DNA of 64,000 bases from Escherichia coli. GTDB taxonomy: Bacteria; Pseudomonadota; Gammaproteobacteria; Enterobacterales; Enterobacteriaceae. The notes beneath the pieces are model-generated. The model was not told the DNA's origin and searched no databases. It saw only the letters and a list, made by a program, of their open reading frames with translations. Positions 2,391-24,168 of the stretch are shown one piece after another (positions within the stretch are counted from its first letter, which is position 1; each line of letters begins with the position of its first letter). The stretch lies in NCBI RefSeq assembly GCF_003790525.1, contig NZ_CP033635.1; one strand, 5' to 3'. A program made the translations under genes and the position numbers.

Positions 2391-2398
2391 CATTGCAA

Positions 2399-3019
2399 TT
2401 ACTGACGCTGGAGCGACTTCAGCGTCAGATACCCACTCCACACCCGCGTAAAGGTCGTCATCCAGCACAACGCACCAAATACCCACGCAAACCACGGAAA
2501 ACAGGCCGGAAAGAGGCAACTCAGAACAAACAGCAAAATCGTCTCGCTGCCTTCGGTTAACCCGCCCAGATAATAAAACGATTTATGCGCATAACCAGGA
2601 TTATCAATCTGATGTTTCGCCGCCAGCGCAGCAAAAGCGAGAAAACTGCTGCCCGTGCCGATAAACGCAAACAGCAGCCAGCCGCCTGCCAGCGCATTTT
2701 GCTCCGGTGCAGCAAGAATAAAACCAAACGGCACCAGCGCGTAAAAGAGAAAATCGAGAGAAATATCGAGAAAGCCGCCCGCGTCGGTAAGCCCTCTGCG
2801 CCGCGCCAGCGCACCGTCCAGACCATCAAGCAGCCTGTTCAACAAAATGGCGACTAGCGCCGCCAGATACCAGCCCAGCGCCAGAAAAGGCAGTGCCAGC
2901 ACGCCGATGGCAAATCCCACTAATGTTAAACCATCTGGCGTAATGCCCGGTTTATCAAGAACCCGCACGCACTGATGCAACAACGGTTTAATCCGGGGAT
3001 GAAGATGGCGGTCTAGCAC
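2399..3019 (-). CDS. ynjF: CDP-alcohol phosphatidyltransferase family inner membrane protein
   Basis: Hydrophobic ORF; second in-frame GTG has AAGGAG 5 nt upstream, giving 206 aa; ORF track starts 2 codons earlier. Confidence 0.8.
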   Translation of the reverse strand: MLDRHLHPRIKPLLHQCVRVLDKPGITPDGLTLVGFAIGVLALPFLALGWYLAALVAILLNRLLDGLDGALARRRGLTDAGGFLDISLDFLFYALVPFGFILAAPEQNALAGGWLLFAFIGTGSSFLAFAALAAKHQIDNPGYAHKSFYYLGGLTEGSETILLFVLSCLFPACFPWFAWVFGALCWMTTFTRVWSGYLTLKSLQRQ

Positions 3020-3105
3020 AGGCACTCCTTAAATATAAAGCCTTTCTGATTGAGCAACAGTGCGGATATTATGGCATTTTTCGCTTATCTGCCCGTGTGT
3101 AATTT

Positions 3106-3513
3106 ATGAAAATGATTGAAGTTGTTGCCGCCATCATCGAACGTGATGGCAAAATTTTACTCGCGCAACGCCCCGCCCATAGCGATCAGGCGGGATTATG
3201 GGAGTTTGCCGGTGGTAAAGTCGAGCCGGATGAAAGCCAGCGGCAGGCGCTGGTGCGTGAGTTACGCGAAGAACTGGGCATCGAAGCAGCTGTGGGTGAA
3301 TATGTTGCCAGCCATCAGCGAGAAGTTTCGGGGCGGATTATCCATCTTCATGCCTGGCACGTACCCGACTTCCACGGGACGTTACAGGCACATGAACATC
3401 AGGCGCTGGTCTGGTGCTCACCTGAAGAGGCGCTGCAATATCCGCTGGCCCCTGCTGACATTCCACTATTAGAGGCGTTTATGGCTTTACGCGCCGCCAG
3501 ACCAGCGGATTAG
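3106..3513 (+). CDS. nudG: Nudix hydrolase (CTP/dCTP pyrophosphohydrolase)
   Basis: 135 aa; Nudix box GGKVEPDESQRQALVRELREELGIE. Confidence 0.9.
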   Translation: MKMIEVVAAIIERDGKILLAQRPAHSDQAGLWEFAGGKVEPDESQRQALVRELREELGIEAAVGEYVASHQREVSGRIIHLHAWHVPDFHGTLQAHEHQALVWCSPEEALQYPLAPADIPLLEAFMALRAARPAD

Positions 3514-3751
3514 TGCTAAGGGTTTTGTCATCACGCTGGCATTGCAGCAGTATTCCTTCGGCTTTAATTACCGCCCCTTCAGAATAATTTTGATCCTGAT
3601 AAACGCAGCACTGAGTACAGGGCTGCGCTGACTGCCCGCCTGAACTGAACACTTCTGGCGGTACGTTTACCTCCACGTCCGGATGATAATGCGGGTTAGC
3701 CAGTGCAATTAATGGAAATGCTAATACTACGGCGAACAATGCTCGACTCAC
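3479..3751 (-). CDS. ynjH: DUF1496 secreted protein
   Basis: 90 aa ORF with N-terminal signal peptide; 3' end overlaps nudG 3' end by 35 bp on the opposite strand. Confidence 0.8.
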   Translation of the reverse strand: MSRALFAVVLAFPLIALANPHYHPDVEVNVPPEVFSSGGQSAQPCTQCCVYQDQNYSEGAVIKAEGILLQCQRDDKTLSTNPLVWRRVKP

Positions 3752-3986
3752 AGGGAACTCCTTAACGTTATTGTCTCTGCTACTGATAACGGTAGCCGGG
3801 TGGCAAAACTTTAGCGTCTGAGTTATCGCATTTGGTTATGAGATTACTCTCGTTATTAATTTGCTTTCCTGGGTCATTTTTTTCTTGCTTACCGTCACAT
3901 TCTTGATGGTATAGTCGAAAACTGCAAAAGCACATGACATAAACAACATAAGCACAATCGTATTAATATATAAGGGTTTTATATCT

Positions 3987-5330
3987 ATGGATCAGACATA
4001 TTCTCTGGAGTCATTCCTCAACCATGTCCAAAAGCGCGACCCGAATCAAACCGAGTTCGCGCAAGCCGTTCGTGAAGTAATGACCACACTCTGGCCTTTT
4101 CTTGAACAAAATCCAAAATATCGCCAGATGTCATTACTGGAGCGTCTGGTTGAACCGGAGCGCGTGATCCAGTTTCGCGTGGTATGGGTTGATGATCGCA
4201 ACCAGGTACAGGTCAACCGTGCATGGCGTGTGCAGTTCAGTTCTGCCATCGGCCCGTACAAAGGCGGTATGCGCTTCCATCCGTCAGTTAACCTTTCCAT
4301 TCTCAAATTCCTCGGCTTCGAACAAACCTTCAAAAATGCCCTGACTACTCTGCCGATGGGCGGTGGTAAAGGCGGCAGCGATTTCGATCCGAAAGGAAAA
4401 AGCGAAGGTGAAGTGATGCGTTTTTGCCAGGCGCTGATGACTGAACTGTATCGCCACCTGGGCGCGGATACCGACGTTCCGGCAGGTGATATCGGGGTTG
4501 GTGGTCGTGAAGTCGGCTTTATGGCGGGGATGATGAAAAAGCTCTCCAACAATACCGCCTGCGTCTTCACCGGTAAGGGCCTTTCATTTGGCGGCAGTCT
4601 TATTCGCCCGGAAGCTACCGGATACGGTCTGGTTTATTTCACAGAAGCAATGCTAAAACGCCACGGTATGGGTTTTGAAGGAATGCGCGTTTCCGTTTCT
4701 GGCTCCGGCAACGTCGCCCAGTACGCTATCGAAAAAGCGATGGAATTTGGTGCTCGTGTGATCACTGCGTCAGACTCCAGTGGCACTGTAGTTGATGAAA
4801 GCGGATTCACGAAAGAGAAACTGGCACGTCTTATCGAAATCAAAGCCAGCCGCGATGGTCGAGTGGCAGATTACGCCAAAGAATTTGGTCTGGTCTATCT
4901 CGAAGGCCAACAACCGTGGTCTGTACCGGTTGATATCGCCCTGCCTTGCGCCACCCAGAACGAACTGGATGTTGACGCCGCGCATCAGCTTATCGCCAAT
5001 GGCGTTAAAGCCGTCGCCGAAGGGGCAAATATGCCGACCACCATCGAAGCGACTGAACTGTTCCAACAGGCAGGCGTACTGTTTGCACCGGGTAAAGCGG
5101 CTAATGCTGGCGGTGTAGCAACATCGGGCCTGGAAATGGCGCAAAACGCTGCGCGCCTGGGCTGGAAAGCCGAGAAAGTTGACGCACGTTTGCATCACAT
5201 CATGCTGGATATCCACCATGCCTGTGTTGAGCATGGTGGTGAAGGTGAGCAAACCAACTACGTGCAGGGCGCGAACATTGCCGGTTTTGTGAAGGTTGCG
5301 GATGCGATGTTAAGCCAGGGCGTGATTTAA
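3987..5330 (+). CDS. gdhA: NADP-specific glutamate dehydrogenase
   Basis: 447 aa; GGGKGGSDFDPKGKS nucleotide/active-site motif; strong codon bias. Confidence 0.95.
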   Translation: MDQTYSLESFLNHVQKRDPNQTEFAQAVREVMTTLWPFLEQNPKYRQMSLLERLVEPERVIQFRVVWVDDRNQVQVNRAWRVQFSSAIGPYKGGMRFHPSVNLSILKFLGFEQTFKNALTTLPMGGGKGGSDFDPKGKSEGEVMRFCQALMTELYRHLGADTDVPAGDIGVGGREVGFMAGMMKKLSNNTACVFTGKGLSFGGSLIRPEATGYGLVYFTEAMLKRHGMGFEGMRVSVSGSGNVAQYAIEKAMEFGARVITASDSSGTVVDESGFTKEKLARLIEIKASRDGRVADYAKEFGLVYLEGQQPWSVPVDIALPCATQNELDVDAAHQLIANGVKAVAEGANMPTTIEATELFQQAGVLFAPGKAANAGGVATSGLEMAQNAARLGWKAEKVDARLHHIMLDIHHACVEHGGEGEQTNYVQGANIAGFVKVADAMLSQGVI

Positions 5331-9238: not shown

Positions 9239-11095
9239 ATGCGAACCCTTTGGCGATTTATTGCCGGATTTTTTAAATGGACGTGGCGTCTGCTGAATTT
9301 CGTCCGTGAAATGGTACTTAACCTGTTCTTTATTTTTCTCGTGCTGGTTGGTGTGGGGATCTGGATGCAGGTCAGTGGTGGTGATTCGAAAGAAACGGCC
9401 AGTCGTGGCGCACTGCTGCTGGACATTTCTGGTGTGATCGTCGATAAACCCGACAGTTCTCAGCGGTTTAGTAAATTAAGCCGCCAGCTGCTTGGTGCCA
9501 GTTCCGATCGTCTGCAGGAAAACTCACTGTTTGATATCGTCAACACCATTCGCCAGGCGAAGGACGACCGCAATATCACCGGTATCGTGATGGATCTGAA
9601 AAACTTCGCAGGCGGCGACCAGCCGTCTATGCAGTACATCGGCAAAGCCCTGAAAGAGTTTCGTGACAGCGGGAAACCGGTTTATGCCGTTGGCGAGAAC
9701 TACAGCCAGGGGCAATATTATCTCGCCAGTTTCGCCAATAAAATTTGGCTGTCACCGCAAGGCGTGGTGGATCTGCACGGTTTTGCCACCAACGGTCTGT
9801 ACTACAAATCGTTACTGGATAAGCTGAAAGTTTCCACCCATGTGTTCCGCGTGGGTACGTATAAATCTGCCGTTGAACCGTTTATTCGTGATGATATGTC
9901 ACCGGCAGCCCGCGAAGCTGACAGCCGCTGGATTGGTGAGCTGTGGCAAAACTATCTGAATACTGTTGCCGCTAACCGGCAGATCCCTGCTCAGCAGGTA
10001 TTCCCTGGCGCGCAAGGGTTGCTTGAGGGTTTAACCAAAACCGGTGGCGATACCGCGAAATATGCGCTGGAAAACAAGCTGGTCGATGCACTGGCATCGA
10101 GTGCCGAAATCGAAAAAGCTCTGACCAAAGAGTTCGGCTGGAGTAAGACTGATAAAAATTATCGCGCCATCAGTTATTACGATTACGCATTGAAAACGCC
10201 GGCAGATACCGGTGACAGCATCGGAGTCGTCTTCGCTAATGGCGCAATTATGGATGGCGAGGAAACTCAGGGGAATGTTGGCGGTGATACCACTGCGGCA
10301 CAAATCCGCGACGCTCGCCTTGACCCGAAAGTGAAAGCGATTGTTCTGCGTGTTAATAGTCCCGGCGGCAGCGTTACTGCGTCTGAAGTGATTCGCGCTG
10401 AACTGGCAGCAGCCCGGGCAGCGGGTAAGCCTGTGGTTGTGTCGATGGGCGGTATGGCGGCATCTGGTGGTTACTGGATTTCCACACCAGCTAATTACAT
10501 TGTGGCTAACCCCAGCACCCTGACCGGTTCTATCGGTATCTTCGGCGTGATCACCACCGTAGAAAATAGTCTGGATTCGATTGGTGTTCATACTGATGGT
10601 GTCTCAACTTCACCGCTGGCGGATGTTTCTATCACCAGGGCACTGCCGCCGGAAGCACAGCAGATGATGCAGTTAAGCATTGAGAATGGCTATAAACGCT
10701 TTATCACGCTGGTTGCTGATGCGCGTCATTCAACGCCAGAGCAGATTGATAAAATCGCCCAGGGCCACGTCTGGACCGGCCAGGATGCAAAAGCTAACGG
10801 GCTGGTCGATAGTCTCGGGGATTTCGATGATGCGGTCGCCAAAGCAGCAGAGCTGGCAAAAGTGAAACAGTGGCATCTGGAATACTACGTTGATGAACCG
10901 ACCTTCTTCGACAAAGTGATGGACAACATGTCTGGTTCTGTCCGGGCAATGTTGCCAGATGCGTTCCAGGCCATGTTACCTGCACCGCTGGCCTCGGTAG
11001 CCTCTACCGTTAAAAGTGAAAACGACAAGCTGGCCGCGTTTAACGACCCACAAAACCGTTATGCGTTTTGCCTGACCTGCGCCAACGTGCGTTAA
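9239..11095 (+). CDS. sppA: signal peptide peptidase A (protease IV)
   Basis: 618 aa from [14 protein letters not shown]; N-terminal membrane anchor, duplicated peptidase S49 domains. Confidence 0.92.
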
Positions 11096-11107
11096 GTCAT
11101 GTACTAA

Positions 11108-11140
11108 GTGGCCGACAGATCGTCGGCCACATTACTTTTT
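11108..11140 (+). terminator. rho-independent terminator after sppA
   Basis: 9-bp stem GTGGCCGAC / GTCGGCCAC with 5-nt loop followed by a T-rich run. Confidence 0.7.
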
Positions 11141-11261
11141 ACGTCGACGAATCCTCTTCCCGCTGTCTCGCCCCATATTTCCTTATCCGCATAGTATCAG
11201 GTGCGCTCCCCCTGCCTCACGTATATACTTTTGCTCTTTCGATATCATTCATATCAATATC

Positions 11262-12278
11262 ATGCAAAAGAAATCAATTTACGTCGCCTACACGGGCGGG
11301 ACCATCGGGATGCAGCGTTCCGAGCAGGGTTATATTCCGGTGTCAGGTCATCTACAGCGCCAACTGGCGCTGATGCCGGAATTCCATCGCCCGGAGATGC
11401 CAGATTTCACCATTCATGAATATACGCCGCTGATGGACTCTTCAGATATGACGCCAGAAGACTGGCAGCATATTGCTGAAGATATTAAAGCGCATTATGA
11501 CGACTATGATGGTTTTGTCATTCTGCACGGCACCGACACGATGGCGTATACCGCCTCTGCACTGTCGTTCATGCTCGAGAATCTCGGTAAACCGGTTATT
11601 GTGACAGGGTCACAAATCCCGCTAGCTGAGTTACGCTCTGACGGACAAATTAATCTGCTGAATGCGTTGTACGTTGCGGCGAATTATCCTATCAACGAAG
11701 TAACTCTCTTTTTTAATAATCGACTTTATCGTGGCAACCGTACCACCAAAGCCCATGCCGATGGTTTTGATGCGTTTGCCTCTCCAAACCTTCCTCCGTT
11801 ACTGGAAGCAGGTATCCATATTCGTCGTTTGAATACGCCACCCGCCCCGCACGGTGAAGGGGAATTGATCGTTCATCCAATCACCCCACAACCGATTGGC
11901 GTAGTGACGATTTATCCGGGGATTTCTGCTGACGTCGTGCGCAATTTTCTGCGCCAACCGGTGAAAGCATTGATTCTGCGCTCATATGGCGTGGGTAATG
12001 CGCCACAAAACAAAGCCTTCCTGCAAGAATTACAAGAAGCCAGCGATCGCGGAATTGTGGTAGTCAACCTGACACAATGTATGTCCGGTAAAGTGAACAT
12101 GGGGGGTTATGCCACCGGTAACGCCCTCGCCCATGCCGGCGTCATTGGCGGTGCAGATATGACTGTAGAAGCCACACTAACCAAACTGCATTACCTGCTT
12201 AGCCAGGAACTGGATACTGAAACCATTCGCAAGGCCATGAGCCAAAACCTGCGTGGCGAACTGACGCCGGATGATTAA
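11262..12278 (+). CDS. ansA: cytoplasmic L-asparaginase I
   Basis: 338 aa; asparaginase N-terminal signature YTGGTIGM. Confidence 0.93.
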   Translation: MQKKSIYVAYTGGTIGMQRSEQGYIPVSGHLQRQLALMPEFHRPEMPDFTIHEYTPLMDSSDMTPEDWQHIAEDIKAHYDDYDGFVILHGTDTMAYTASALSFMLENLGKPVIVTGSQIPLAELRSDGQINLLNALYVAANYPINEVTLFFNNRLYRGNRTTKAHADGFDAFASPNLPPLLEAGIHIRRLNTPPAPHGEGELIVHPITPQPIGVVTIYPGISADVVRNFLRQPVKALILRSYGVGNAPQNKAFLQELQEASDRGIVVVNLTQCMSGKVNMGGYATGNALAHAGVIGGADMTVEATLTKLHYLLSQELDTETIRKAMSQNLRGELTPDD

Positions 12279-12288
12279 GGAGACTGCA

Positions 12289-12930
12289 ATGCCCCCTCGC
12301 GCCCTGTTACTGGTCGATTTACAAAATGATTTCTGTGCTGGTGGCGCGCTCGCCGTGCCGGAAGGTGACAGTACGGTGGATGTCGCTAACCGCCTGATTG
12401 ACTGGTGCCAGTCGCGCGGTGAAGCGGTTATCGCCAGTCAGGACTGGCATCCGGCGAATCACGGCAGTTTTGCCAGTCAGCACGGTGTAGAGCCTTATAC
12501 GCCAGGCCAACTCGACGGTTTGCCACAAACCTTCTGGCCCGATCACTGTGTGCAGAACAGTGAAGGTGCACAATTACATCCGTTACTGAAGCAAAAAGCG
12601 ATCGCAGCGGTGTTCCATAAAGGCGAAAATCCTTTAGTTGACAGTTACAGTGCCTTTTTTGATAACGGCCGTCGGCAGAAAACTGCGCTCGATGACTGGT
12701 TACGCGATCATGAAATCGATGAATTGATCATTATGGGCCTGGCTACTGACTATTGCGTGAAGTTTACCGTGCTGGACGCGTTACAGTTAGGCTATAAGGT
12801 GAACGTGATTACCGATGGTTGTCGTGGCGTAAATATCCAGCCACAGGACAGTGCGCACGCGTTTATGGAAATGTCAGCAGCTGGGGCAACGCTATATACG
12901 CTGGCAGACTGGGAAGAAACGCAGGAGTAA
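12289..12930 (+). CDS. pncA: nicotinamidase / pyrazinamidase
   Basis: 213 aa from MPPRALLLVDLQNDF; isochorismatase-fold protein; start 8 nt after ansA stop. Confidence 0.9.
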   Translation: MPPRALLLVDLQNDFCAGGALAVPEGDSTVDVANRLIDWCQSRGEAVIASQDWHPANHGSFASQHGVEPYTPGQLDGLPQTFWPDHCVQNSEGAQLHPLLKQKAIAAVFHKGENPLVDSYSAFFDNGRRQKTALDDWLRDHEIDELIIMGLATDYCVKFTVLDALQLGYKVNVITDGCRGVNIQPQDSAHAFMEMSAAGATLYTLADWEETQE

Positions 12931-12939
12931 TTTTACGCT

Positions 12940-12970
12940 GGCCTACAATTCTGTACTGGCATTGTAGGCC
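12940..12970. terminator. bidirectional hairpin between convergent pncA and ydjE
   Basis: Perfect 10-bp arms GGCCTACAAT / ATTGTAGGCC separated by 11 nt. Confidence 0.6.
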
Positions 12971-13022
12971 AGATAAAACACGTCAGTGGTACATCTGGCA
13001 ATTGATGCCATCAACGAAAGAT

Positions 13023-14381
13023 TTAATTCACCTCAGAAATCTCTTCCAGCGACACCTTCCGCGTTTCGATGCCAAAAATGGAGAGAACCAGCGCACAGAG
13101 CACTAACATGACACCAAGCACCATAAACACCGTAATCGACCCATAATGTGTTAATAATGCCGCAACGCCATAGGGCGTGAAGACTGCGACGATCCGTCCG
13201 ACGGCATTAACGAAACCCGAACCACGCAGGCGTAAATGCGTTGGCCAAAGTTCCGGGATATAAACCGCCGACGCGAAGCACACATACATGTATAAAAAGA
13301 AGATCATCACCAGGCCATAGATTAAAATCGCCCACTCTGTAGTTTGAATTGAATAGATATAGCCTAACACAGCAATAATAATAAGTAAGGCAGAGCCAAA
13401 TAATCGACGAGGAAAATGATCAATAATTAATGCCGCAATAAATATCCCTACCGGAGCGCCAATCATAATAACAGCGGTCATTAATATTGATTTATCAACA
13501 TCAATGCCGGAGTTAACAAATATGGTCGGTATCCATACGGTGATGGTATAAAGCGAAATGTTCATTGCAATTAACACAGTAATCGCGACTAATGTACGTC
13601 GTAACATTTCCCCTTTAAACAGGAGCCAGAAGGTACCCTTGATTACCTTAACCTTGCTGTTGCTCTGGTTCAAAGTAAGCGGGGGTAAACGAATACTCTT
13701 CTCTCTTTCAATTTGCTGCTCTACTTCACGAAGTTGGCTTTCTGCACCTGCGATTTGCCCTTTCCCTGCCAGCCATCGTGGCGACTCAATAAAGTATTTA
13801 CCTGAGAGAAACCAGGCTAACAGTATGCCAATACCGCCCAGCAGAAACATTATCCGCCAACTAAAAAAAGCGATAACCACCACGCCTATCGCCGCAGACA
13901 GCATGGGCGACCAGTTACCAACAAATGAGAGCCGCGCGGACCATTTTCCACGCACCGTCGCGGGGATAAACTCCGTAAATGAGGCATAGCCAACCATAAT
14001 CAGCGCCCCCATTCCTGTGCCCATCAGGAAGCGAAAGAAGATGAGCCAGTACATATCAGGGACAAAAGCGGCCCCTGTTGCCGCAATACCGACGATGAGA
14101 AGATTTATGCGAAAAGCCCTGCGCCGCCCAAAATAATCACCGATGAACCCACCGGTAAGAGAGCCGATGAAATAACCAAACATTAATGCCGAGGTAAAGG
14201 CGGCATTGAGGAAATTATTTGACCATCCATTGCTTACCAGCTTTGCTAAAACAACATTGCCTGAATAACTCAAAAAACCCGTTAATAACAGACTAAAGCT
14301 TATAATACCAAATATACGATAATGAAACCGGGCCAAAGGCAAGCGGTCCAGTCTTGCGCCAATTTGATCATATTGTTCCAT
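13023..14381 (-). CDS. ydjE: MFS transporter (sugar/metabolite porter type)
   Basis: 452 aa, multiple hydrophobic helices; ATG start verified. Confidence 0.88.
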   Translation of the reverse strand: MEQYDQIGARLDRLPLARFHYRIFGIISFSLLLTGFLSYSGNVVLAKLVSNGWSNNFLNAAFTSALMFGYFIGSLTGGFIGDYFGRRRAFRINLLIVGIAATGAAFVPDMYWLIFFRFLMGTGMGALIMVGYASFTEFIPATVRGKWSARLSFVGNWSPMLSAAIGVVVIAFFSWRIMFLLGGIGILLAWFLSGKYFIESPRWLAGKGQIAGAESQLREVEQQIEREKSIRLPPLTLNQSNSKVKVIKGTFWLLFKGEMLRRTLVAITVLIAMNISLYTITVWIPTIFVNSGIDVDKSILMTAVIMIGAPVGIFIAALIIDHFPRRLFGSALLIIIAVLGYIYSIQTTEWAILIYGLVMIFFLYMYVCFASAVYIPELWPTHLRLRGSGFVNAVGRIVAVFTPYGVAALLTHYGSITVFMVLGVMLVLCALVLSIFGIETRKVSLEEISEVN

Positions 14382-14497
14382 TAGGTGCCTCGGATTTGCT
14401 AAAAAGGTAGCAATTGCGGCAAATTCACTTGCCGCATCTTTATCATCATTTTATTTCCAGGCGCAGGAACAAATAATATTGACAACGTGTGCTAAAA

Positions 14498-15256
14498 TTA
14501 CCACACCAGCTGGATATTATTGTCTTTGCAAAATGCTATCCACTCTGCACCCGGTGATTTATCAGTTATTATGTAATTAATATGACTAAAGTCAGCTAAC
14601 TGGACAAAAGCTTTGCGATCAAACTTAGAGTGATCAACCAATAACGCAACTTCTGTCGCCTGACGGATCATTGTCTTTTTGATTTCAGCTTCCGCTTCGT
14701 TAGAGTCCAGCGCGCCGCTGTTAATATCAAGACCTTTACAACTCATTACCATGATATCGACATGGTAGCGGCTGATGATCTCTTTAGTAATTCTTCCTTG
14801 CAGGGAAAGTGTATTTTTGTTTAGTTCCCCACCCGTTGAAACGACTTTAATTTCTGACTGAGCCAGAACATGAATCGCTTCCGCCGAGTTGGTTAGCAAC
14901 GTCAGGTCACTACGGTCCTGTAACAATTTGAGCAATTCCATTACGGTACTACTGGAATCGGCTGCCATGGTGGTTTTATTGTCGACAAAGGGTAGTGCCT
15001 TGCGTGCAATAAGCTGCTTCTCTTCATAAAACGATGAAGCGCGCTTATAAAAATGGATATTCTCCGTCAACATCGCTGTATTTAAAACAGCACCACCATA
15101 GGTTCTGGTCAAAAAGCCTTCATCTTCCAGCTTCTCAAGATCGCGGCGAATGGTTTCTTCGGTTACCTGAAAAATCCCACTCAAATTTGAGACTGTCACC
15201 TTTTTATCGTTGGCAACCATTTGCTTAATTGCCTGAATCCTGTCTTTTGCCGCCAC
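14498..15256 (-). CDS. ydjF: DeoR-family transcriptional regulator
   Basis: 252 aa; N-terminal HTH and DeoR-type sugar-phosphate sensor domain; GTG start. Confidence 0.88.
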   Translation of the reverse strand: MAAKDRIQAIKQMVANDKKVTVSNLSGIFQVTEETIRRDLEKLEDEGFLTRTYGGAVLNTAMLTENIHFYKRASSFYEEKQLIARKALPFVDNKTTMAADSSSTVMELLKLLQDRSDLTLLTNSAEAIHVLAQSEIKVVSTGGELNKNTLSLQGRITKEIISRYHVDIMVMSCKGLDINSGALDSNEAEAEIKKTMIRQATEVALLVDHSKFDRKAFVQLADFSHINYIITDKSPGAEWIAFCKDNNIQLVW

Positions 15257-15392
15257 GATTACACCCCTGTATCTTTTTACATCACATTAGCGCGATTATC
15301 GCATAACCGATGTTTACTTTCAAAATAACCTGTTTGAATCACAGATTTTCATTACAGTTTTCACAGAAACAGAGGTGAATCGTGTTGAGTAT

Positions 15393-16373
15393 TTAACGCT
15401 CCAGGGCCTCTGCCATTTCCCTCATCAATGTTGCGTCTGCATCCGATAAGTTGATATTCAGTGCCGCGACATTTTCACGTACCTGTTCCGGTGCAGTAGC
15501 CCCACTAAGAATGGAGATTAAATCACTCTGTTTTAATATCCACGCCAGTGCCAGAGTGGGAATTGTGCACTGATAACGAGCACAGAGTGGCTGCCACTGT
15601 TCAAGCATATCAATCACTTTCAGCATGTTTTCACGCTGGAACCAGACTTTATTTGCCCGAGCGCCGCCCGGAACGTAATCACGCGTGATGGTACCGGTCA
15701 ACAATCCCTGCTCTAGCGGGGAATAAACCTGTACCACAATGCCATTATCACGACATAGCGGCAGCAGTTCGCTTTCCAATGCCCGGTCGAGGATACTGTA
15801 TTTCGCCTGAATAATATCCAGTTCACCATATTGCAGATACTCGCGGATATGGTCAGCATCGACGTTAGCAGCGCCTATAGCGCGAATTTTTCCTTCGGCC
15901 TTTAACTCATTGAGCACTGCGACAGTTTCAGCTATCGGCGTAAAAAATGGCGGCACCGACTGCCAGTGCGTCATGTAGATATCGATGTAATCAATATCCA
16001 GACGTTGCAAGCTGGCTTCTACCTCTTCGCGGATAGATTCCGGGGAAAGGTTTTTATACAACTGCCGATCGCCCACTTTGTTGAATAAACTCCCTTTTCG
16101 TTCCCAGACAATGCCGCATTTGGTTTCTACTACAACCTGTTCACGGGGCAGTTTTTTTAACGCCTGACCGACGATAACTTCACTATTGCCAAAGTTATAT
16201 CCTGGCGCAGTATCAATCAGATTAATGCCACAACGATGGGCTTCAAGAATCGTATCAATACATATTTGCCGATCGAGATCGCCATTCCATGCAGGACCGC
16301 CGCCAATGGCCCATGTCCCCAACCCCATTCGCGAAAGCGTAATATCCGTTGTGCCTAAAGGTATCTTTTTCAT
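15393..16373 (-). CDS. ydjG: aldo-keto reductase
   Basis: 326 aa AKR-family sequence. Confidence 0.88.
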   Translation of the reverse strand: MKKIPLGTTDITLSRMGLGTWAIGGGPAWNGDLDRQICIDTILEAHRCGINLIDTAPGYNFGNSEVIVGQALKKLPREQVVVETKCGIVWERKGSLFNKVGDRQLYKNLSPESIREEVEASLQRLDIDYIDIYMTHWQSVPPFFTPIAETVAVLNELKAEGKIRAIGAANVDADHIREYLQYGELDIIQAKYSILDRALESELLPLCRDNGIVVQVYSPLEQGLLTGTITRDYVPGGARANKVWFQRENMLKVIDMLEQWQPLCARYQCTIPTLALAWILKQSDLISILSGATAPEQVRENVAALNINLSDADATLMREMAEALER

Positions 16374-16382
16374 TTGCCTTCA

Positions 16383-17330
16383 TTATCCTTCGTATTCTTC
16401 CAGCAATTGTTCGACCAGTTTTCTGTTTTTTACACCGGTGGTGGCACCGACGCTCAAAACAGAGATAGCCGCCGTTGCATTGGCAAAGCGTGCGCATTCA
16501 CGCAGATTTTTGCCTTCTAACAGAGCCGCTATAAAGCCAGAAGCAAAGTTATCGCCTGCGCCAATAGTGTCGATGGCGGTTATTCCTGCGACCGCCGGCA
16601 CCTTCATCGTCATGTCACCACGCTTGATAAAGCAGCCGTCTTTACCCGTTTTAATCACCACCGTTTTTACGCCGCACGCAAGAAAGCAGTCAGCAATTTC
16701 ATCCAGTGTCTCTTTCCCGGTGAGTAATTTTGCCTCGGCAAAATTAGGAAACAGATAATCGACATAACTCAATGCTTCGCAAATATCATCCAGCGTTTCA
16801 TTCAACCGCGGTTTGATCATATCGGCACAGATAATCATCTGCCGGGCTTTAGCTTGCGTAAAAATTTCTGTTAGCGCTTTACCATCCAATAGAGGACTGT
16901 TGAAAATACTGGCCAGAGATAATAATTTCGCCTGAGAAAACCGCGAAAAATCAACATCGTCAATATTCAATTTCCACAGACTGCCGTTACGGTTTGTGAC
17001 AAACGTCCGCTCGCCATCCTCCGTCACCAGTCCAACGTTAATTGAGGTATCTATGCTGACGTCCTGCTTCAGGCTTTGAATATCAATATTCTCTTTGCGG
17101 CAATGGTCGAGAATAAATTGCCCGGCGGCATCTTTACCAATACGACTCATTAATGCTGTGCGATGGCCCAGACGAGAAATAATTGTTGCTTCATTTATTG
17201 CATCACCCCCGGTGGTCATTGCGATTCTTTCAAGAGGATAAGAATCCACATCAAAGATATTTTTACTGACCGGTTGCAATGGAATATCAACAATAGCGGC
17301 ACCTATACAAATAACGTCGAGATTATCCAT
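16383..17330 (-). CDS. ydjH: PfkB-family sugar (acid) kinase
   Basis: 315 aa from MDNLDVICIGAAIVD; PfkB signature DTIGAGDNFASGF; the ORF-track start would overlap ydjI. Confidence 0.85.
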   Translation of the reverse strand: MDNLDVICIGAAIVDIPLQPVSKNIFDVDSYPLERIAMTTGGDAINEATIISRLGHRTALMSRIGKDAAGQFILDHCRKENIDIQSLKQDVSIDTSINVGLVTEDGERTFVTNRNGSLWKLNIDDVDFSRFSQAKLLSLASIFNSPLLDGKALTEIFTQAKARQMIICADMIKPRLNETLDDICEALSYVDYLFPNFAEAKLLTGKETLDEIADCFLACGVKTVVIKTGKDGCFIKRGDMTMKVPAVAGITAIDTIGAGDNFASGFIAALLEGKNLRECARFANATAAISVLSVGATTGVKNRKLVEQLLEEYEG

Positions 17331-17334
17331 ATCA

Positions 17335-18171
17335 TTATTCCGCTTTGCCATCAGAACCGAACAGTTTAATTTTTTCCAATGCCCGTTCTTTTACAGCTTT
17401 ACGTACTTCACGTTCTAAATGCAGGAAAGGCTGATCCTGGTTTTCTTTCACTGCTACCATTGCGGCCTGACAGAGCTCCGTATGAATGTTGATTTTCGCA
17501 ATACCCAACGAAATTGCAGTTTTAATGTCGGCATCACTGATCCCCGATGCGCCGTGCAAAACCAGCGGAACAGAAACAGCATCGCGTACGCGTTTGACGA
17601 CCTCAAAGTTCAATTGTGGCTCTGACGTATAAACCCCATGCTGGTTGCCGATGGCGACAGCCAATGAGTCACAGCCCGTACGTTCAACAAATTCAGCCGC
17701 CTGGTCAGGATCGGTATAGTGATAGCCCGCCAGCGCTTCCTCATAAACGGTTTCATTACCGACATGCCCTAATTCCGCCTCTACCGGAATACCCAGCGGA
17801 TGGAAGAAATCAACAGCCTCTTTGGTTAAACGAATATTTTCTTCGAAATCAAATGCGGAAGCATCACGCATTAATGAATTCATACCATGAGTCCAGGCGT
17901 TATGAATAATTTCCATACTCCGACCATGATCCCAATGAGTTATTACCGGCACCGTTGCTTTTTTTGCCATTGATACCATCATGTGAGAGAAATCTTCAAA
18001 TGAGGTGTTCCCGACAAAACCTGTACCAAAAGAAATAATAACCGGTGATTTCGCTTCTTCGGCTGCGTCGATAACGCCCATCAACATTTCTGCATTCCAT
18101 ACGTTAAAATGGGCAATTGCATAATGTTTATTTGTGGCATCGTTTTCCCAATATCTGATATCTGCGAGCAT
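17335..18171 (-). CDS. ydjI: class II (metal-dependent) aldolase
   Basis: 278 aa; fructose/tagatose-bisphosphate aldolase class II-like sequence. Confidence 0.88.
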   Translation of the reverse strand: MLADIRYWENDATNKHYAIAHFNVWNAEMLMGVIDAAEEAKSPVIISFGTGFVGNTSFEDFSHMMVSMAKKATVPVITHWDHGRSMEIIHNAWTHGMNSLMRDASAFDFEENIRLTKEAVDFFHPLGIPVEAELGHVGNETVYEEALAGYHYTDPDQAAEFVERTGCDSLAVAIGNQHGVYTSEPQLNFEVVKRVRDAVSVPLVLHGASGISDADIKTAISLGIAKINIHTELCQAAMVAVKENQDQPFLHLEREVRKAVKERALEKIKLFGSDGKAE

Positions 18172-18191
18172 ATTCTGTTCTCCCGTATTAA

Positions 18192-19235
18192 TTAATCGCT
18201 AATTTTAATAACGCCTTTAATAATGTCGCGTTTGTTGTTAACTGACTCTTCAAATGCCTGTTGTACATCCCGATAATCGTAAATATGCGTCACCATCGAT
18301 TTCACATCGAATCGCCCTGAAGAAATAGCTTCAATCGTGACCGGATAACGATTGGCATAGCGGAATACCGTCTGGATAGTGACTTCGCGATTGATTTTGA
18401 GGAAATTGATTGCCGAATCGCCCGGTACAGTACCAACAATCATAATTTTACCGCCGCGCATTACCAGATAAGGTGCCTGTTTAACGGTGACCGCAGAACC
18501 TGCTGTTTCGAAAACAATATCTGCGCCCATTTCTTCGGTAAATTGCTGACAGCGTGCAATAGTGTCTTCTTTTGCGCCGTTAATAACCACTGTCGCGCCG
18601 AGCTGTTCCGCCATTGTCAGACGTTTTTCCAGCACATCAACGACGGCAATATCCGTAGCTCCCAGGCATTTGCACGCTTGCAACGTCATCAAACCAATAC
18701 AACCTGCTCCCAGAATAATTATCTTCTTACCCGGTTTAACATCTGCCAGCATCGCGGCATGCATCCCGACTGCGGCAGGCTCCACCAGCGCCCCTTCCAT
18801 CGTGTCCATATTGTCTGGCAGTTTGTAAGTAAAGCTCTCCGGATGACACAGATAGTGCGTTAATGCGCCGCGGTAGTTGGGTTGTGTCGCCATAAAATCA
18901 ACGTCCGGGCAAATGTTATATTTGCCTTCCAGACAGTAACGACAGTGACCGCAAGGAACGCCAGGTTCGATATTTACCCGATCCCCCGGTTTAAATTTGC
19001 GCACGCGGCTTCCCACAGCCACAACCGTCCCGGCGCATTCATGACCCAGGCCAATTTCTTGATTTGGGTCTTTAGGCGGAATAAACGGGCCTGATTCAAA
19101 ACCATGTACATCTGAACCACAAATACCGACATATTCTACTTTAATCAAAACTTCATCTTCTTTAGGCACAGGCATTTCTGCTGAAATAATTTTCATTGTG
19201 CCCGGCACCTGCAATATTGCTTTTGAATTTTTCAT
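18192..19235 (-). CDS. ydjJ: Zn-dependent polyol/alcohol dehydrogenase
   Basis: 347 aa; Zn-ADH motif GHECAG and Cys-rich structural zinc site. Confidence 0.88.
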   Translation of the reverse strand: MKNSKAILQVPGTMKIISAEMPVPKEDEVLIKVEYVGICGSDVHGFESGPFIPPKDPNQEIGLGHECAGTVVAVGSRVRKFKPGDRVNIEPGVPCGHCRYCLEGKYNICPDVDFMATQPNYRGALTHYLCHPESFTYKLPDNMDTMEGALVEPAAVGMHAAMLADVKPGKKIIILGAGCIGLMTLQACKCLGATDIAVVDVLEKRLTMAEQLGATVVINGAKEDTIARCQQFTEEMGADIVFETAGSAVTVKQAPYLVMRGGKIMIVGTVPGDSAINFLKINREVTIQTVFRYANRYPVTIEAISSGRFDVKSMVTHIYDYRDVQQAFEESVNNKRDIIKGVIKISD

Positions 19236-19251
19236 TTTGAATCCACCAGTA

Positions 19252-20631
19252 TTATTTATTGACTACTGCATCAATACTTAAACTTTCAACGGAGACACCT
19301 TTGGTTTCAATTCCAATGGTGGCGATAGCAATTGCGACAATAATTGAAACCGCCCCCAGAAGAATAAAGACTCCCGTTACGCCATAACTACTGAGCAGCA
19401 CTGCAACGGCATAAGGTGCGGCAATACCACTGATTCGCCCTACTGCATTCGCCAGACCGGAGCCACGTAATTTTGCCTCTGTCGGCCAGATCTCAGGGAC
19501 ATACACTGCCGAGGCATAGCAAACGTACATATAGACGAAAGTAATCAGGAAGAAACCAATCAGCGTTATGAGCAACATACTGGTTTGCAGTGAATAGATA
19601 TATCCGAGCACCGCAATCAGGATTAATAGCCCCACACCCATTGTTTTACGCGGAATTTTATCCATCACCAGCATGGCAATAAATATACCAAATGGCGCAC
19701 CAAACATACTCATGGTATTTAAAACAATCGAGTCTTTTAAATTAATCCCCTGGGTCATGAATATTGTTGGCAACCAGTTAATTAGTGTGTACTGCACAAC
19801 GTTCATGGCAATCAGCACACAAGAACCTAATATCACGCGTTTCAGTAATACTCCTGTCAGTAAGGCTGAATACGGCACCGCTTGTGGCGCTTTACCGTCA
19901 TCAGCAATAACCACGGGCGGCAAAGGTTTTCCCGTCTGGCGTATGACGCCTTCTTCTATACTCCGCATGACTTTCTCGGCTTCCTGATACCGTCCGCGCG
20001 ATTCCAGCCAGCGCGGGGATTCAGGAAAGTAGCGCCAGGCCAGCGCCGTAGCGATAAGCGACAATATTGCAGGGATAAGCAGTTGTACTCGCCAGTTCCA
20101 CTCTGCACTAATCAGCGGCGTGAGTCCCATCGCAATCAATGAACAGAGCGGATATGACCAGTTGCCAATAAAAGAAACCCGACTGGACCACGTTCCGCGA
20201 TTTCTACCGGGCATATATTCGGTGAAACCAGCAAACAGCGTCACCAGTAAAGCTCCCAGCCCAACGCCCATCACAAAACGGCAGGCAATAAGGAAATCCA
20301 TATTCGGTGAAAAAGCACCGACCACCATCGAGGCAATATGAATGGCCTCATAGAGGATGAACGCATTTCTGCGACCGGTTTTGTCACCGATGATGCCGCC
20401 AACCAGCGCACCGAGAAACATTCCGGCGGTCGTGATTGCTGAGAATGTGGCAGTGGTGGAATTATCTGTCCAGCCCAACGCTTTCAGCTGCGCGAGGATC
20501 AAGCCACCAACGGCATTACTCCAGCAGACAAGCAAGCCAAACGCGACGATAGCAAACATTGACGAATGCCAGCGGCAATCCGGTAAGCGATCCAGCCGAG
20601 CACCACAATGCGGTTTTGTTATCTGTTCCAT
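19252..20631 (-). CDS. ydjK: MFS transporter
   Basis: 459 aa polytopic membrane protein, paralogous to ydjE. Confidence 0.88.
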   Translation of the reverse strand: MEQITKPHCGARLDRLPDCRWHSSMFAIVAFGLLVCWSNAVGGLILAQLKALGWTDNSTTATFSAITTAGMFLGALVGGIIGDKTGRRNAFILYEAIHIASMVVGAFSPNMDFLIACRFVMGVGLGALLVTLFAGFTEYMPGRNRGTWSSRVSFIGNWSYPLCSLIAMGLTPLISAEWNWRVQLLIPAILSLIATALAWRYFPESPRWLESRGRYQEAEKVMRSIEEGVIRQTGKPLPPVVIADDGKAPQAVPYSALLTGVLLKRVILGSCVLIAMNVVQYTLINWLPTIFMTQGINLKDSIVLNTMSMFGAPFGIFIAMLVMDKIPRKTMGVGLLILIAVLGYIYSLQTSMLLITLIGFFLITFVYMYVCYASAVYVPEIWPTEAKLRGSGLANAVGRISGIAAPYAVAVLLSSYGVTGVFILLGAVSIIVAIAIATIGIETKGVSVESLSIDAVVNK

Positions 20632-20657
20632 GCGATAACGCTCCTTCAGGAGAGTAG

Positions 20658-21734
20658 TTATTCATCAAAGTCGTAAGTCATGATCACTTTGATTGCGGTT
20701 TTATCGACCATCGCATCAAACCCTTCGCGCCATTGCGACAGGCCGATACGATGCGTGATCATCGGTTTGACTTTGATAGCGCCGCTGGCTAATAGCCTGA
20801 TAGCGTTACGCCATGAGGTGGAGTCATAGGCCATATGCCCAATGATGCTTTTGTTCCAGGCGGTAATGTCATTAATCGAGAAATCAAGAGGTTTGAAGCC
20901 CATTCCAACGCGTACCACTTCCCCATTCGGGCGGAGCATTTCGATGGCTTGTTTCAATGCGATATTGGCACCGGAGCATTCAATCACCAGCCCCAGATTG
21001 TCTTTGCCACAAATTTGCTGGCAGCGTGCCACCACATCTTCGGTAGAACCATTTACTACTGCCGTCGCACCCAGTTCTTTTGCAACCGGGAAGCGGACCG
21101 CCACATCTTCTTGTAGACCAACGACGACGATATTTACCGCCCCCATAATCCGCGCCATTTGTACGGAGAACAGTCCGAGTGGGCCAGTGCCGATGACGAC
21201 TACATCCTGACCAGGGAGGAATTTCGATTGCTGCGCGATGGATTTGTAGGCATTGCAGATAGGGTCAAGTACGGCTGCGTCCTCATAATCAACACCATCA
21301 GGGATTTCCCACAACGCATGACGATGAATTTTGAGAATTTCACCAGGAACCAGACAATATTTGGAAAAACCACCGCCCCAGGTATTGTTATCCAGACCAA
21401 GGTTTACTTTTTCTGTACAACACAGAAAATCACCTTGTTCACAGGCCGGACAAACGCCGCAGACGTGACCGCTGTTATCTGACACGACGCGTTGCCCCAC
21501 TTTCCAGTCTTTGACTTTTTCACCAACCTGCGCAATACAACCTGCGAACTCATGGCCGCGGATAGAGTTAAACTCATCAGAACCGCTATCGACATTGTAG
21601 TGCTTCATGTCTGCGCCGCAGATTGCCGCGGCTTTAATTTCAATCACGACATCTTCCGGGCCACAAATGGGTTGTGGCACATCGATCATCTTGTAGCCGC
21701 CAAAGGCTTTGCCAAACCGAGCCAGTGCTTTCAT
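20658..21734 (-). CDS. ydjL: Zn-dependent dehydrogenase
   Basis: 358 aa; GHEFAG catalytic zinc motif and CxxCxxC structural zinc motif. Confidence 0.88.
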   Translation of the reverse strand: MKALARFGKAFGGYKMIDVPQPICGPEDVVIEIKAAAICGADMKHYNVDSGSDEFNSIRGHEFAGCIAQVGEKVKDWKVGQRVVSDNSGHVCGVCPACEQGDFLCCTEKVNLGLDNNTWGGGFSKYCLVPGEILKIHRHALWEIPDGVDYEDAAVLDPICNAYKSIAQQSKFLPGQDVVVIGTGPLGLFSVQMARIMGAVNIVVVGLQEDVAVRFPVAKELGATAVVNGSTEDVVARCQQICGKDNLGLVIECSGANIALKQAIEMLRPNGEVVRVGMGFKPLDFSINDITAWNKSIIGHMAYDSTSWRNAIRLLASGAIKVKPMITHRIGLSQWREGFDAMVDKTAIKVIMTYDFDE

Positions 21735-21805
21735 TGCGTCATCCTCTGTGTTTTGTTTTGCTTAGATGGTCATCATACTTACCCACATGATTTTTGAGGT
21801 CAACA

Positions 21806-21856
21806 TTAAATCTGTAAAACACAGATAATGATCTGCGTTTTACAACTCAGATCACA
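21806..21856 (-). promoter_or_regulatory. candidate operator cluster upstream of ydjL (repeated CAGAT/ATCTG inverted repeats)
   Basis: ATCTG at 21810 and 21831, CAGAT at 21822 and 21848, forming overlapping inverted repeats 70-120 bp upstream of the ydjL start. Confidence 0.35.
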
Positions 21857-22103
21857 ATTACGCAGAAAATGGCTGGAGCTGTTACAGGTTGATGGAAGGC
21901 GGAACGCAAAATGAGCAAATTTGAGAGGGATTACCGGCCAAATAGGTCTGAGACTTAAGTTCAGGAGAAGTCATTCAGGCGTGAACGCGACTGCAAGAGA
22001 CCGGACTGGGGCTTTGCCTGGTCGTGACGAGATAATTGAGATGAGTCGTGGGGTTATTGTTGGCTATCCCCTTTATAACCGCGGCAAAAAGGGGACAAAC
22101 CAC

Positions 22104-22376
22104 TTACTTAAACATGGCAATTGGCTTTGCTGAGATACCAAAATCTTCTTTTAACTGTTGTTTGCTCTTCATGACCATCTGACCATTTGTGTCAATTGTC
22201 ATATGCTGTGCTTCGGTATTATGGCGGGCTTGCCACAGCATCACCAGTTGCAGGCAGTTCTCTTTTTGTTCCTCGGTCAACGCAACGCCATCAGGCCATT
22301 TCCCCAATTCAACGGCGGTCGACAAACGCTGGTATACCTCAGGCGTCATGCTGTTGATAATGTCATCAAGATTCAT
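22104..22376 (-). CDS. yeaC: DUF1315 family protein
   Basis: 90 aa from MNLDDIINSMTPEVYQ; the ORF-track 15-codon extension would overlap msrB. Confidence 0.8.
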   Translation of the reverse strand: MNLDDIINSMTPEVYQRLSTAVELGKWPDGVALTEEQKENCLQLVMLWQARHNTEAQHMTIDTNGQMVMKSKQQLKEDFGISAKPIAMFK

Positions 22377-22417
22377 AATTTTTCCGCTCCTGTGGAATAA
22401 GTTGCTGAATCGTTTTT

Positions 22418-22831
22418 TCAACCGTTGATTTCTTCGCCGTTTTCGCCATCGGTAAAGCGTAAAGAGGCAGAGTTAACACAATAACGTTCGCCCGTTGGCT
22501 GCGGCCCGTCGGGGAAGACATGCCCCAGATGGGCATCACAGTTACCGCAACGAATTTCTATGCGCTGCATTCCATGTGACAAGTCTTTGATATAACGAAT
22601 GGATTCTTCACTCACCGGTTCGTAGAAACTGGGCCAGCCACAGCCGGAATCATACTTGGTTTGGGAATGAAACAGCGGGGCATCGCAGATCAAACAGTGA
22701 TATACGCCGTCACGCTTGTTATGCAGTAAACGACCCGTAAATGGCGGCTCTGTCCCATGATTCTGCGTCACGTAGAACTGCATCTCGGACAAATTTTTTT
22801 TCAGTTCTTCTGCCGAAGGTTTATTAGCCAT
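22418..22831 (-). CDS. msrB: peptide methionine-R-sulfoxide reductase
   Basis: 137 aa; two CxxC zinc pairs and catalytic region CGWPSF. Confidence 0.9.

Positions 22832-24168
<1,337 letters not shown>

Follow-up and report, generated by a model that had tools for sequence, protein, structure and literature searches.

Which compound does the ydj gene cluster of Escherichia coli break down, and do its eight genes serve one pathway? The question is raised by positions 13023–21734 of a 64,000-nucleotide stretch of E. coli DNA (assembly GCF_003790525.1, contig NZ_CP033635.1), referred to here as the window. Among the orphan sugar pathways left in E. coli, that of the ydj cluster is one of the better studied. 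The cluster occurs in 80% of strains and becomes active in the mouse gut, so that its substrate, once named, would close a real gap in gut physiology. Here we report the identity of the locus, the boundaries of the genomic island that carries it, a seven-gene core found across phyla, the exchange of transporters between lineages, and the enrichment, placement and constraint of a palindrome. We consider it rather probable that the cluster is an inducible, normally silent catabolic operon for a sugar-like compound met in the gut. Comparative handles come out of the analysis, among them a candidate operator for the regulator YdjF and a seven-gene core which parts essential from accessory genes.

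The locus is the known ydj cluster of E. coli

Eight consecutive, intact open reading frames (ORFs) on the minus strand were confirmed by an ORF listing of positions 11000–24000, and in a megablast search against complete E. coli genomes the region 13023–21734 matched E. coli SMS-3-5 (NC_010498.1) at 100%. The RefSeq gene names there are ydjE, ydjF, ydjG, ydjH, ydjI, ydjJ, ydjK and ydjL, and the neighbours are pncA and, at the other end, yeaC-msrB-gapA. The E. coli ydj cluster is recognised by the order ydjL-K-J-I-H-G-F-E on a single strand between pncA and yeaC, as found here. The feature is this already known cluster in its SMS-3-5 allele, and its presence is unsurprising to a specialist. 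E. coli K-12 has the same locus, genes and order between pncA and yeaC (region 97.9% identical), with no difference of substance. The initial annotation had placed eight minus-strand genes here, on which the ORF listing and RefSeq agree, and NCBIfam scores upheld its family assignments for all eight; its finding adds nothing beyond published work.

The genes, all on the minus strand, are ydjL (20658–21734), a Zn-dependent dehydrogenase of the medium-chain dehydrogenase/reductase (MDR) type by family match; ydjK (19252–20631), a major facilitator superfamily (MFS) transporter of 459 aa, also by family match; ydjJ (18192–19235), a Zn-dependent dehydrogenase of the polyol (sorbitol) dehydrogenase type (family and PDB 5VM2); ydjI (17335–18171), a class II (Zn) aldolase dependent on dihydroxyacetone phosphate (DHAP; TIGR00167 and PDB 6OFU); ydjH (16383–17330 from the RefSeq start, the longest ORF reaching 17351), a PfkB-family sugar kinase (family and PDB 3H49/3IN1); and ydjG (15393–16373), an aldo-keto reductase with NADH-dependent methylglyoxal reductase activity in vitro (NF049922 score). 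The last two were assigned by ORF, RefSeq and family match: ydjF (14498–15256), a DeoR/GlpR-family regulator of 252 aa with a GTG start, and ydjE (13023–14381), an MFS transporter of 452 aa. The sequence of import, oxidation, phosphorylation and cleavage previously read from this gene set matches the family assignments.

Intergenic gaps are 26 bp (L-K), 16 bp (K-J), 20 bp (J-I), 4 bp (I-H), 9 bp (H-G), 136 bp (G-F) and 116 bp (F-E). The operon-like packing of ydjL-K-J-I-H-G described earlier was borne out, but its range of 4–20 bp was not, the real range being 4–26 bp with L-K at 26 bp; the separate upstream spacers of ydjF and ydjE are those of 136 and 116 bp. A promoter and terminator scan of the cluster predicted no internal terminator or strong promoter inside ydjLKJIHG, and published work treats these genes as a single unit (PMC6561318, PMC8085971). 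The 4–26 bp gaps and this published usage suggest that ydjLKJIHG is one predicted operon.

A seven-gene core shared among gut bacteria

A scan of a genome collection with YdjI gave 80 loci at 74–99% identity (22 in Enterobacterales, 2 in Gilliamella and 56 in other phyla), onto which the eight E. coli proteins were mapped by tblastn and in which neighbouring ORFs were clustered. Escherichia, Citrobacter, Klebsiella, Raoultella, Yokenella and their relatives have all eight genes in identical order, and the same neighbours, pncA-ansA-sppA at one end and yeaC-msrB-gapA at the other. L-(K)-J-I-H-G-F is also the arrangement in many Lachnospiraceae, in Clostridium, Veillonella, Megamonas and Anaerococcus, and in Erysipelotrichaceae, Atopobiaceae and Synergistaceae. 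Gilliamella, from the bee gut, has the same genes with G-H-J inverted, and some other loci swap G and H. Almost all carriers of the cluster are gut or host-associated organisms.

The L-J-I-H-G core was complete in 21/22 Enterobacterales loci, in both Gilliamella loci and in 52/56 loci of other phyla, and its gene order was nearly always the same. For ydjF the counts were 22/22, 2/2 and 41/56, and for ydjK 20/22, 2/2 and 35/56; ydjE was present in all 22 Enterobacterales loci, in neither Gilliamella locus and in only three of the 56 others. The unit under shared selection therefore appears to comprise seven genes, ydjL-(K)-J-I-H-G plus ydjF, not eight, and ydjE looks like a mostly enterobacterial addition. 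As to the initial annotation's single pathway of eight genes, the gene content stands, but the unit conserved across phyla is the seven without ydjE.

Median identities of the other-phylum proteins to those of E. coli were 83% for YdjL, 83% for YdjI, 75% for YdjJ, 66% for YdjH, 62% for YdjG, 54% for YdjK and 53% for YdjF, values that are unusually high for peripheral catabolic enzymes across phyla. The GC content of the cluster tracks that of its host, from 33% to 65%; it is lower than that of the flanks in 21 of 23 loci of the Enterobacterales group (by 2.6 points on average) and about equal elsewhere. High identity across phyla combined with host-tracking GC points to horizontal spread that was probably not very recent, and to strong constraint on YdjL, YdjI and YdjJ. 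Base composition was set aside as evidence for the direction of transfer, being weak since the GC of the cluster tracks that of the host.

One Lachnospiraceae locus (L023, positions 107–4850) has a second mini-cluster directly upstream of the ydj cluster, with H-, G-, J- and L-like genes at 29–51% identity, which suggests a family of related pathways.

Transporters and accessory genes differ between lineages

Outside Enterobacterales the core is joined by further genes. A gene similar to D-allulose-6-phosphate-3-epimerase lies between ydjL and ydjK in 29 Firmicute loci (242.6 bits vs a cut-off of 271), and a transporter of the sodium:dicarboxylate symporter family (Pfam SDF, PF00375, 266 bits) follows ydjF in 27 loci. 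A Liv/Urt-type ABC system with a Peripla_BP_6 binding protein was found in 12 loci, most of them without ydjK (L045 and L050 have both), and four loci have a CUT1-type sugar ABC system instead. Transporters thus appear interchangeable between lineages, the MFS protein YdjK, SDF, Liv-type ABC and CUT1-type ABC systems taking each other's place. The soluble binding proteins and the SDF transporter of Firmicutes could be screened directly for the transported ligand.

SDF and Liv-type transporters are known for carboxylate or amino-acid solutes, and the carboxylates agree with the in-vitro carboxylate preference of YdjH and YdjI described below. In five or six ydjK-less loci, genes for a rhamnulokinase-like FGGY kinase, a FucA-like class II aldolase and a TIM-barrel enzyme extend the string. 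The extra kinase and aldolase would give a second round of phosphorylation and cleavage, fitting a long chain that is cut twice. The gene order of this variant (L047, L048, L053, L056, L057 and L068) is ydjF, Liv-type ABC permeases and ATPases, FGGY kinase, FucA-like aldolase, TIM-barrel enzyme and Peripla_BP_6. No conserved glycoside hydrolase or lyase that might point to a source polymer was found beside the cluster, where large neighbouring proteins were unrelated between loci.

Enzyme families and the likely type of substrate

With 325 bits vs 215.6, YdjI is above the cut-off of TIGR00167, a subfamily of class II ketose-bisphosphate aldolases. It falls under the equivalog cut-offs of TIGR01859 (246.8 vs 343), GatY (240 vs 383) and KbaY (186 vs 542), hence by NCBIfam score it is not within the FbaA, GatY or KbaY equivalogs, which are fructose- or tagatose-1,6-bisphosphate aldolases. 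YdjH is a PfkB protein at superfamily level only and is below the cut-off of every PfkB kinase of named specificity tested (IolC, ribokinase, KdgK, fructokinase and tagatose kinase), with scores of 141 vs 300 for IolC, 132 vs 300 for ribokinase and 74 vs 420 for tagatose kinase. YdjL and YdjJ, which are only 28% identical to each other, likewise stay outside the equivalogs for L-threonine 3-dehydrogenase (Tdh, 217 and 204 vs 380), IolM (181 and 196 vs 450) and L-idonate 5-dehydrogenase (IdnD, 117 and 174 vs 469), all under cut-off. YdjF shows the DeoR/GlpR family fold and the helix-turn-helix (HTH) signature TEETIRRDL and is below every named DeoR-family equivalog cut-off (GlpR, AgaR, SrlR, FucR, DeoR and UlaR), its best named match being the halophile GlpR (170.6 vs 300). 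YdjK scores equally as MFS_1 and Sugar_tr, with an aromatic-acid:H+ symporter subfamily as best NCBIfam match, under cut-off; YdjE is its paralogue (44% identity). No NCBIfam cut-off of a family with a named substrate was passed by YdjH, YdjL/YdjJ, YdjF or YdjK/YdjE.

Solved structures exist for YdjI (PDB 6OFU, 624 bits, E = 2e-187), YdjH (PDB 3H49/3IN1, 685 bits, E = 7e-206) and YdjJ (PDB 5VM2, 775 bits), the proteins of the window being identical or nearly so to those in the PDB. The next matches of YdjJ were a ketose reductase and sorbitol dehydrogenases (225–254 bits), and its nearest relatives in the PDB are sorbitol, xylitol and arabinitol dehydrogenases. The PDB search gave no solved structure of YdjL, whose nearest solved relative is a threonine dehydrogenase (150 bits).

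According to accounts of Huddleston and Raushel 2019 in PMC9602453 and PMC11194214, YdjH and YdjI favour long-chain 2-keto sugars with a carboxylate end. The best in-vitro substrate of YdjH is an eight-carbon keto-uronate and that of YdjI is its 1-phosphate; YdjI cleaves the 1-phosphate to DHAP and an aldehyde-acid. The best YdjI substrate is given as L-glycero-L-galacto-octuluronate (PMC9602453), and the same paper calls the enzymology of the operon only partly determined. The cluster had been put forward as the likeliest place in the window for unassigned metabolism; with structures and YdjH/YdjI chemistry in hand, it is better described as a recognised, partly characterised orphan.

Known pathways offer partial parallels. 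In the myo-inositol catabolism of Bacillus subtilis (IolC/IolJ), a PfkB kinase phosphorylates the hydroxymethyl group beside the keto group of a keto-acid sugar, and a class II aldolase of the FBA family releases DHAP and an aldehyde-acid. IolC is the best NCBIfam match of YdjH, and IolM is among the best for YdjL and YdjJ, but these scores are far under the equivalog cut-offs (141 vs 300 for IolC; 181–196 vs 450 for IolM), genes for inositol dehydrogenase, dehydratase and hydrolase are absent from the ydj cluster, and the preferred in-vitro substrates have eight carbons, not six. The galactitol and N-acetylgalactosamine systems (GatY/KbaY, GatR/AgaR) share with ydj a class II ketose aldolase of the same subfamily and a DeoR-family repressor, whereas the ydj cluster has neither a phosphotransferase system (PTS) nor a GatZ/KbaZ partner, and YdjF scores 152 vs the AgaR cut-off of 260. 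The D-altritol/galactitol pathway of Agrobacterium tumefaciens uses two Zn dehydrogenases, a PfkB tagatose kinase and an epimerase of the class II aldolase family, enzyme families as in ydj; we take the comparison as a lead only. YdjI, for its part, is a genuine DHAP aldolase and no epimerase of the GatZ type.

The substrate could also be an ordinary neutral polyol or rare ketose, oxidised, phosphorylated, epimerised and cleaved in a hexitol or heptitol route, with the octuluronate activity an in-vitro promiscuity. The polyol dehydrogenases nearest to YdjJ, the epimerase-like gene of the 29 Firmicute loci, the CUT1 systems of four loci and the Sugar_tr score of YdjK all fit this route. We nevertheless think it improbable, as YdjH and YdjI are reported to prefer carboxylate-ended long-chain sugars, the commonest alternative transporters are of the SDF and Liv types (the SDF gene with the same operator motif, see below), and the cluster has one kinase only, whereas a bisphosphate is required by Gat/Kba-type class II ketose aldolases.

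YdjG passes the YdjG NADH-dependent methylglyoxal reductase equivalog (NF049922, 627 bits vs 550), and others have shown that it reduces small aldehydes, including methylglyoxal, with NADH in vitro. This activity would suit a cluster that serves mainly in stress or detoxification, against reactive aldehydes such as methylglyoxal or in acid or osmotic stress, rather than in nutrition, as would the over-representation of ydj genes in lactic-acid-resistant E. coli (PMC9602453) and the better high-salt growth reported on YdjK overexpression (PMC6561318). Such a role is very unlikely in our view. A transporter, two dehydrogenases, a kinase, a DHAP aldolase and a DeoR repressor are the usual parts of a sugar-catabolic gene cluster, here kept as a block across phyla, and the kinase and aldolase have no role in aldehyde detoxification. 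Moreover, the link with acid resistance follows phylogroup, the cluster being scarce in B1 (PMC9602453), and may be hitch-hiking.

A conserved palindrome at the probable ydjL and ydjF promoters

The terminator scan picked up an inverted repeat with 15-bp arms upstream of ydjL, in a region that alignment showed to be almost invariant in Enterobacterales, and Firmicute ydjL leaders have the same palindrome word ahead of a TTGACA hexamer. The common element is a 15-bp palindrome of 6-3-6 layout (TCTKTG-AAA-CAMAGA). Searched as the pattern TCTKTRAAACACAGA with at most two mismatches, it has three matches in the window, all within the cluster, where 0.44 were expected and none of 100 shuffles reached three; only matches at this threshold were used, and at three mismatches the window shows no enrichment (6 vs 4.7 expected). 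Across the 80 loci (1.53 Mb) there were 158 matches, compared with 5–13 in local shuffles, of which 57 lay upstream of ydjL, 21 inside ydjL, 16 upstream of the SDF transporter gene and 11 upstream of ydjF. In Firmicutes the same motif precedes ydjL, ydjF and the accessory SDF-family transporter.

In the window, all on the minus strand, the candidate YdjF operator O1 (21811–21825, sense TCTGTGTTTTACAGA) lies 7 nt upstream of the ydjL -35 hexamer TTGACC. A further candidate, O2 (21832–21846, GTTGTAAAACGCAGA), has three mismatches and its centre is 21 bp from that of O1, the two together forming the long inverted repeat with 15-bp arms. The candidate operator at the ydjF promoter (15331–15345, sense TCTGTGATTCAAACA) is 7 nt upstream of the -35 hexamer TTGAAA, a gap identical to that at ydjL. 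No operator motif was found upstream of ydjE in the motif scan of the window. The probable ydjL promoter (21775–21803), assigned by inspection, consists of -35 TTGACC (21803–21798), a 17-nt spacer and -10 AAGTAT (21780–21775). Its TTGAC block is kept from E. coli to Firmicutes, and reads TTGACC, TTGACT or TTGATT within Enterobacterales. The scan also gave a promoter-like site for ydjF (15295–15323), with -35 TTGAAA (15323–15318), a 17-nt spacer and a TG-extended -10 GATAAT (15300–15295); with 10/12 matches it is the best in the region and it is conserved in Enterobacterales. As sites in the scan were no more numerous than in shuffles, it was used only for the ydjF promoter and the palindrome.

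The third match is an intragenic palindrome (21412–21426, TTCTGTGTTGTACAGAA), a candidate auxiliary operator over ydjL codons 103–108 (F-L-C-C-T-E). The sequence TTTCTGTGTTGTACAGAA is kept there in all 21 Enterobacterales loci with ydjL while adjacent codons vary freely; in Firmicutes a different choice of codons specifies an almost identical peptide, and the palindrome is missing. Among 20 distinct enterobacterial sequences no six-codon window of ydjL is more conserved at synonymous sites, the synonymous entropy sum being 0.90 vs an average of ~5.9 (rank 1–2 of 252 windows). The promoter, the operators and the synonymous sites of the intragenic candidate thus seem to be under selection, and the palindromes are likely YdjF operators.

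The layout would allow auto-regulation and possibly a loop from promoter to ORF in the manner of DeoR, which acts by DNA looping with several operators. As in the deo operon, a DeoR-family repressor is paired with promoter palindromes and a distant auxiliary site (here a candidate, ~400 bp downstream and inside ydjL), but the candidate ydj operator is unrelated in sequence to the DeoR operator and YdjF scores 87.6 vs the DeoR cut-off of 244. Special conservation of the YdjF HTH was tried as support for the operators and rejected as uninformative, TEETIRRDL being a general DeoR-family signature; in Lachnospiraceae, the HTH shows no greater identity than the remainder of YdjF.

Further upstream of ydjL, a conserved TTGTGATCTGAG block (21845–21860, minus strand) contains a perfect TGTGA half-site of CRP type (21852–21856), conserved in Enterobacterales. 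A full CRP site was considered and rejected, the left half being good and the right half having one of five matches. The half-site agrees with a published list of newly predicted units under Crp activation that includes ydjLKJIHG (PMC8085971). In culture the ydjL promoter is off, but it fires reproducibly once the bacteria have passed through the mouse gut (PMC6561318), and the same source cites higher YdjG protein in the caecum.

A proposed pathway

On the reading that we favour, a normally silent operon for a sugar-like compound of the gut, the substrate, probably an acidic polyol or ketose of at least seven carbons, would enter via YdjK and perhaps YdjE. The sorbitol-dehydrogenase-like YdjJ and the second dehydrogenase YdjL would make or adjust a 2-keto group, YdjH would phosphorylate the product, YdjI would then cleave it, and YdjG would handle an aldehyde or keto intermediate. 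We infer both the order of the dehydrogenase and reductase steps and that the natural substrate is a long-chain anion. YdjF, as a DeoR-type repressor, would keep ydjLKJIHG and its own gene off by binding the 15-bp palindromes just upstream of both -35 hexamers and the auxiliary site inside ydjL, possibly with looping between promoter and intragenic site as DeoR does, and CRP would supply activation. The module ydjL-(K)-J-I-H-G with ydjF would have spread between phyla of gut bacteria, its transporter swapped en route.

Several points weigh against this reading. The transporter evidence is mixed, as SDF and Liv types suggest carboxylates or amino acids and CUT1 and Sugar_tr suggest neutral sugars. 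The AlsE-like ketose-phosphate 3-epimerase of Firmicute clusters is not in the E. coli cluster, hence the pathway may differ between lineages or be incomplete in E. coli. Kinetic detail for YdjH and YdjI is second-hand, through papers describing Huddleston and Raushel 2019, and L-glycero-L-galacto-octuluronate is described as without natural abundance in PMC9602453. A full-text literature search gave no paper assigning the cluster a physiological substrate or inducer, in keeping with the earlier remark that both are uncertain, and the cluster is not known to have a growth phenotype. On the regulatory side, we infer that YdjF binds the palindromes only from where they lie, how far they are conserved and their co-occurrence; in several loci that encode a YdjF homologue there is no match at up to two mismatches, and the motif was derived partly from E. 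coli O1, so that the O1 match is circular.

A bolder version of the proposal, which we hold only tentatively and think improbable, sees in ydjL-(K)-J-I-H-G/ydjF a gut module complete in itself, shared horizontally and equipped with a conserved operator, that feeds on an abundant, unrecognised acidic sugar of at least seven carbons and of plant or microbial origin, for instance a derivative of an octulosonic or heptulosonic acid set free from lipopolysaccharide or pectin. On this view YdjL and YdjI stay at ~83% identity between Proteobacteria and Firmicutes, and in the ydjK-less variant the second kinase and aldolase would deal with the rest of the long carbon chain. If true, identification of the compound would establish a new route of catabolism that is widespread in the gut microbiomes of animals.

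The cluster lies in a variable 9.2-kb island

The ydj cluster was found in 4335 of 5426 complete E. coli genomes (80%) by megablast of 13023–21734. With a wider query that included the flanks, 5425 genomes matched but only 4264/5426 carried most of the region; among the matches listed, those with 23% coverage had the flanking genes only. In E. coli O103:H2 str. 12009 the distance from pncA to yeaC is 160 bp, and homology to this strain ends at window position 12931 (pncA stop) and restarts at 22106 (yeaC stop). This alignment bounds a variable island of 9.2 kb (12932–22105), from the pncA stop to the yeaC stop, which takes in the 369-bp ydjL-yeaC spacer. The 160-bp spacer of the cluster-less strain is unrelated to the window save for a 17-bp REP-like match. 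Prevalence of ydjI is ~30% in phylogroup B1 vs 97–100% in A, B2, D and E (PMC9602453). Given that the cluster is old in the family, with the same genes, order and flanks, its absence from some E. coli would most simply be loss.

Such losses raise the prospect that the E. coli cluster is a decaying remnant without present function. The 20% of complete genomes that lack it agree with this, and insertion sequence (IS) elements of the IS1, IS5 or IS3 type are found in some strains: in E. coli HeN100 (L083), copies of IS1 and IS5 have disrupted ydjE and removed the genes from ydjK to ydjG, and in O157:H7 6535NalR (match H39) an IS3-family element lies within the region. The cluster is also silent in laboratory culture (PMC6561318), and 3'-end mapping in a preprint placed Rho-dependent termination in the ydjL leader or early in its ORF (bioRxiv 10.1101/2020.07.18.207399). 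Set against this are eight intact ORFs, the full region at 95–100% identity in 4254–4264 genomes, synteny with Citrobacter and Klebsiella, which speaks for long vertical retention, apparent selection on the promoter, operators and synonymous sites of the intragenic operator, and a promoter that fires in the mouse gut (PMC6561318). We therefore regard decay as most doubtful, and favour a functional operon that is silent until induced.

Two features of the island margins were seen in addition. Beyond the promoter and operator block, the ydjL-yeaC spacer (21735–22103) has no ORF of at least 80 aa and no Rfam match, and at its position Citrobacter and Klebsiella have GH18 chitinase-like and HNH-endonuclease-like genes (ORF clusters c18 and c21). 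At the other margin, a REP-like palindrome (GGCCTACAATGCC...GAATTGTAGGCC) lies at 12940–12990 between the convergent ydjE and pncA, and a 17-bp piece of it is the sole sequence in common with the 160-bp spacer.

Other conserved elements

The ydjF-ydjE spacer contains a conserved G+C-rich hairpin with an 8-bp stem (TGCGGCAA...TTGCCGCA, 14415–14436, minus strand), found by the scan and by alignment. The stem is kept in other Enterobacterales with both strands changed (e.g. GCGACAG...CTGTCGC in L015), and the fold z-score of the whole spacer is only -1.46. The hairpin could be a ydjF terminator or a 5' leader element of ydjE. A scan of 12500–22600 at Rfam gathering thresholds gave no match.

Lachnospiraceae ydjL leaders (L024, L029, L036, L037 and others) have a conserved hairpin, CGTTTCCGGCCGGAAACG, which follows the promoter and precedes the ribosome-binding site, ~60–110 nt ahead of the ydjL start. 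E. coli does not have this hairpin, which may be an attenuator or an RNA-stability element. Finally, a degenerate LexA site from chromatin immunoprecipitation on microarrays (ChIP-chip), CCCTGTATCTTTTTACATCA, was assigned to 'ydjF, ydjK' (PMC3542263), and this sequence is present at 15265–15284, between the ydjF -10 hexamer and the start codon.

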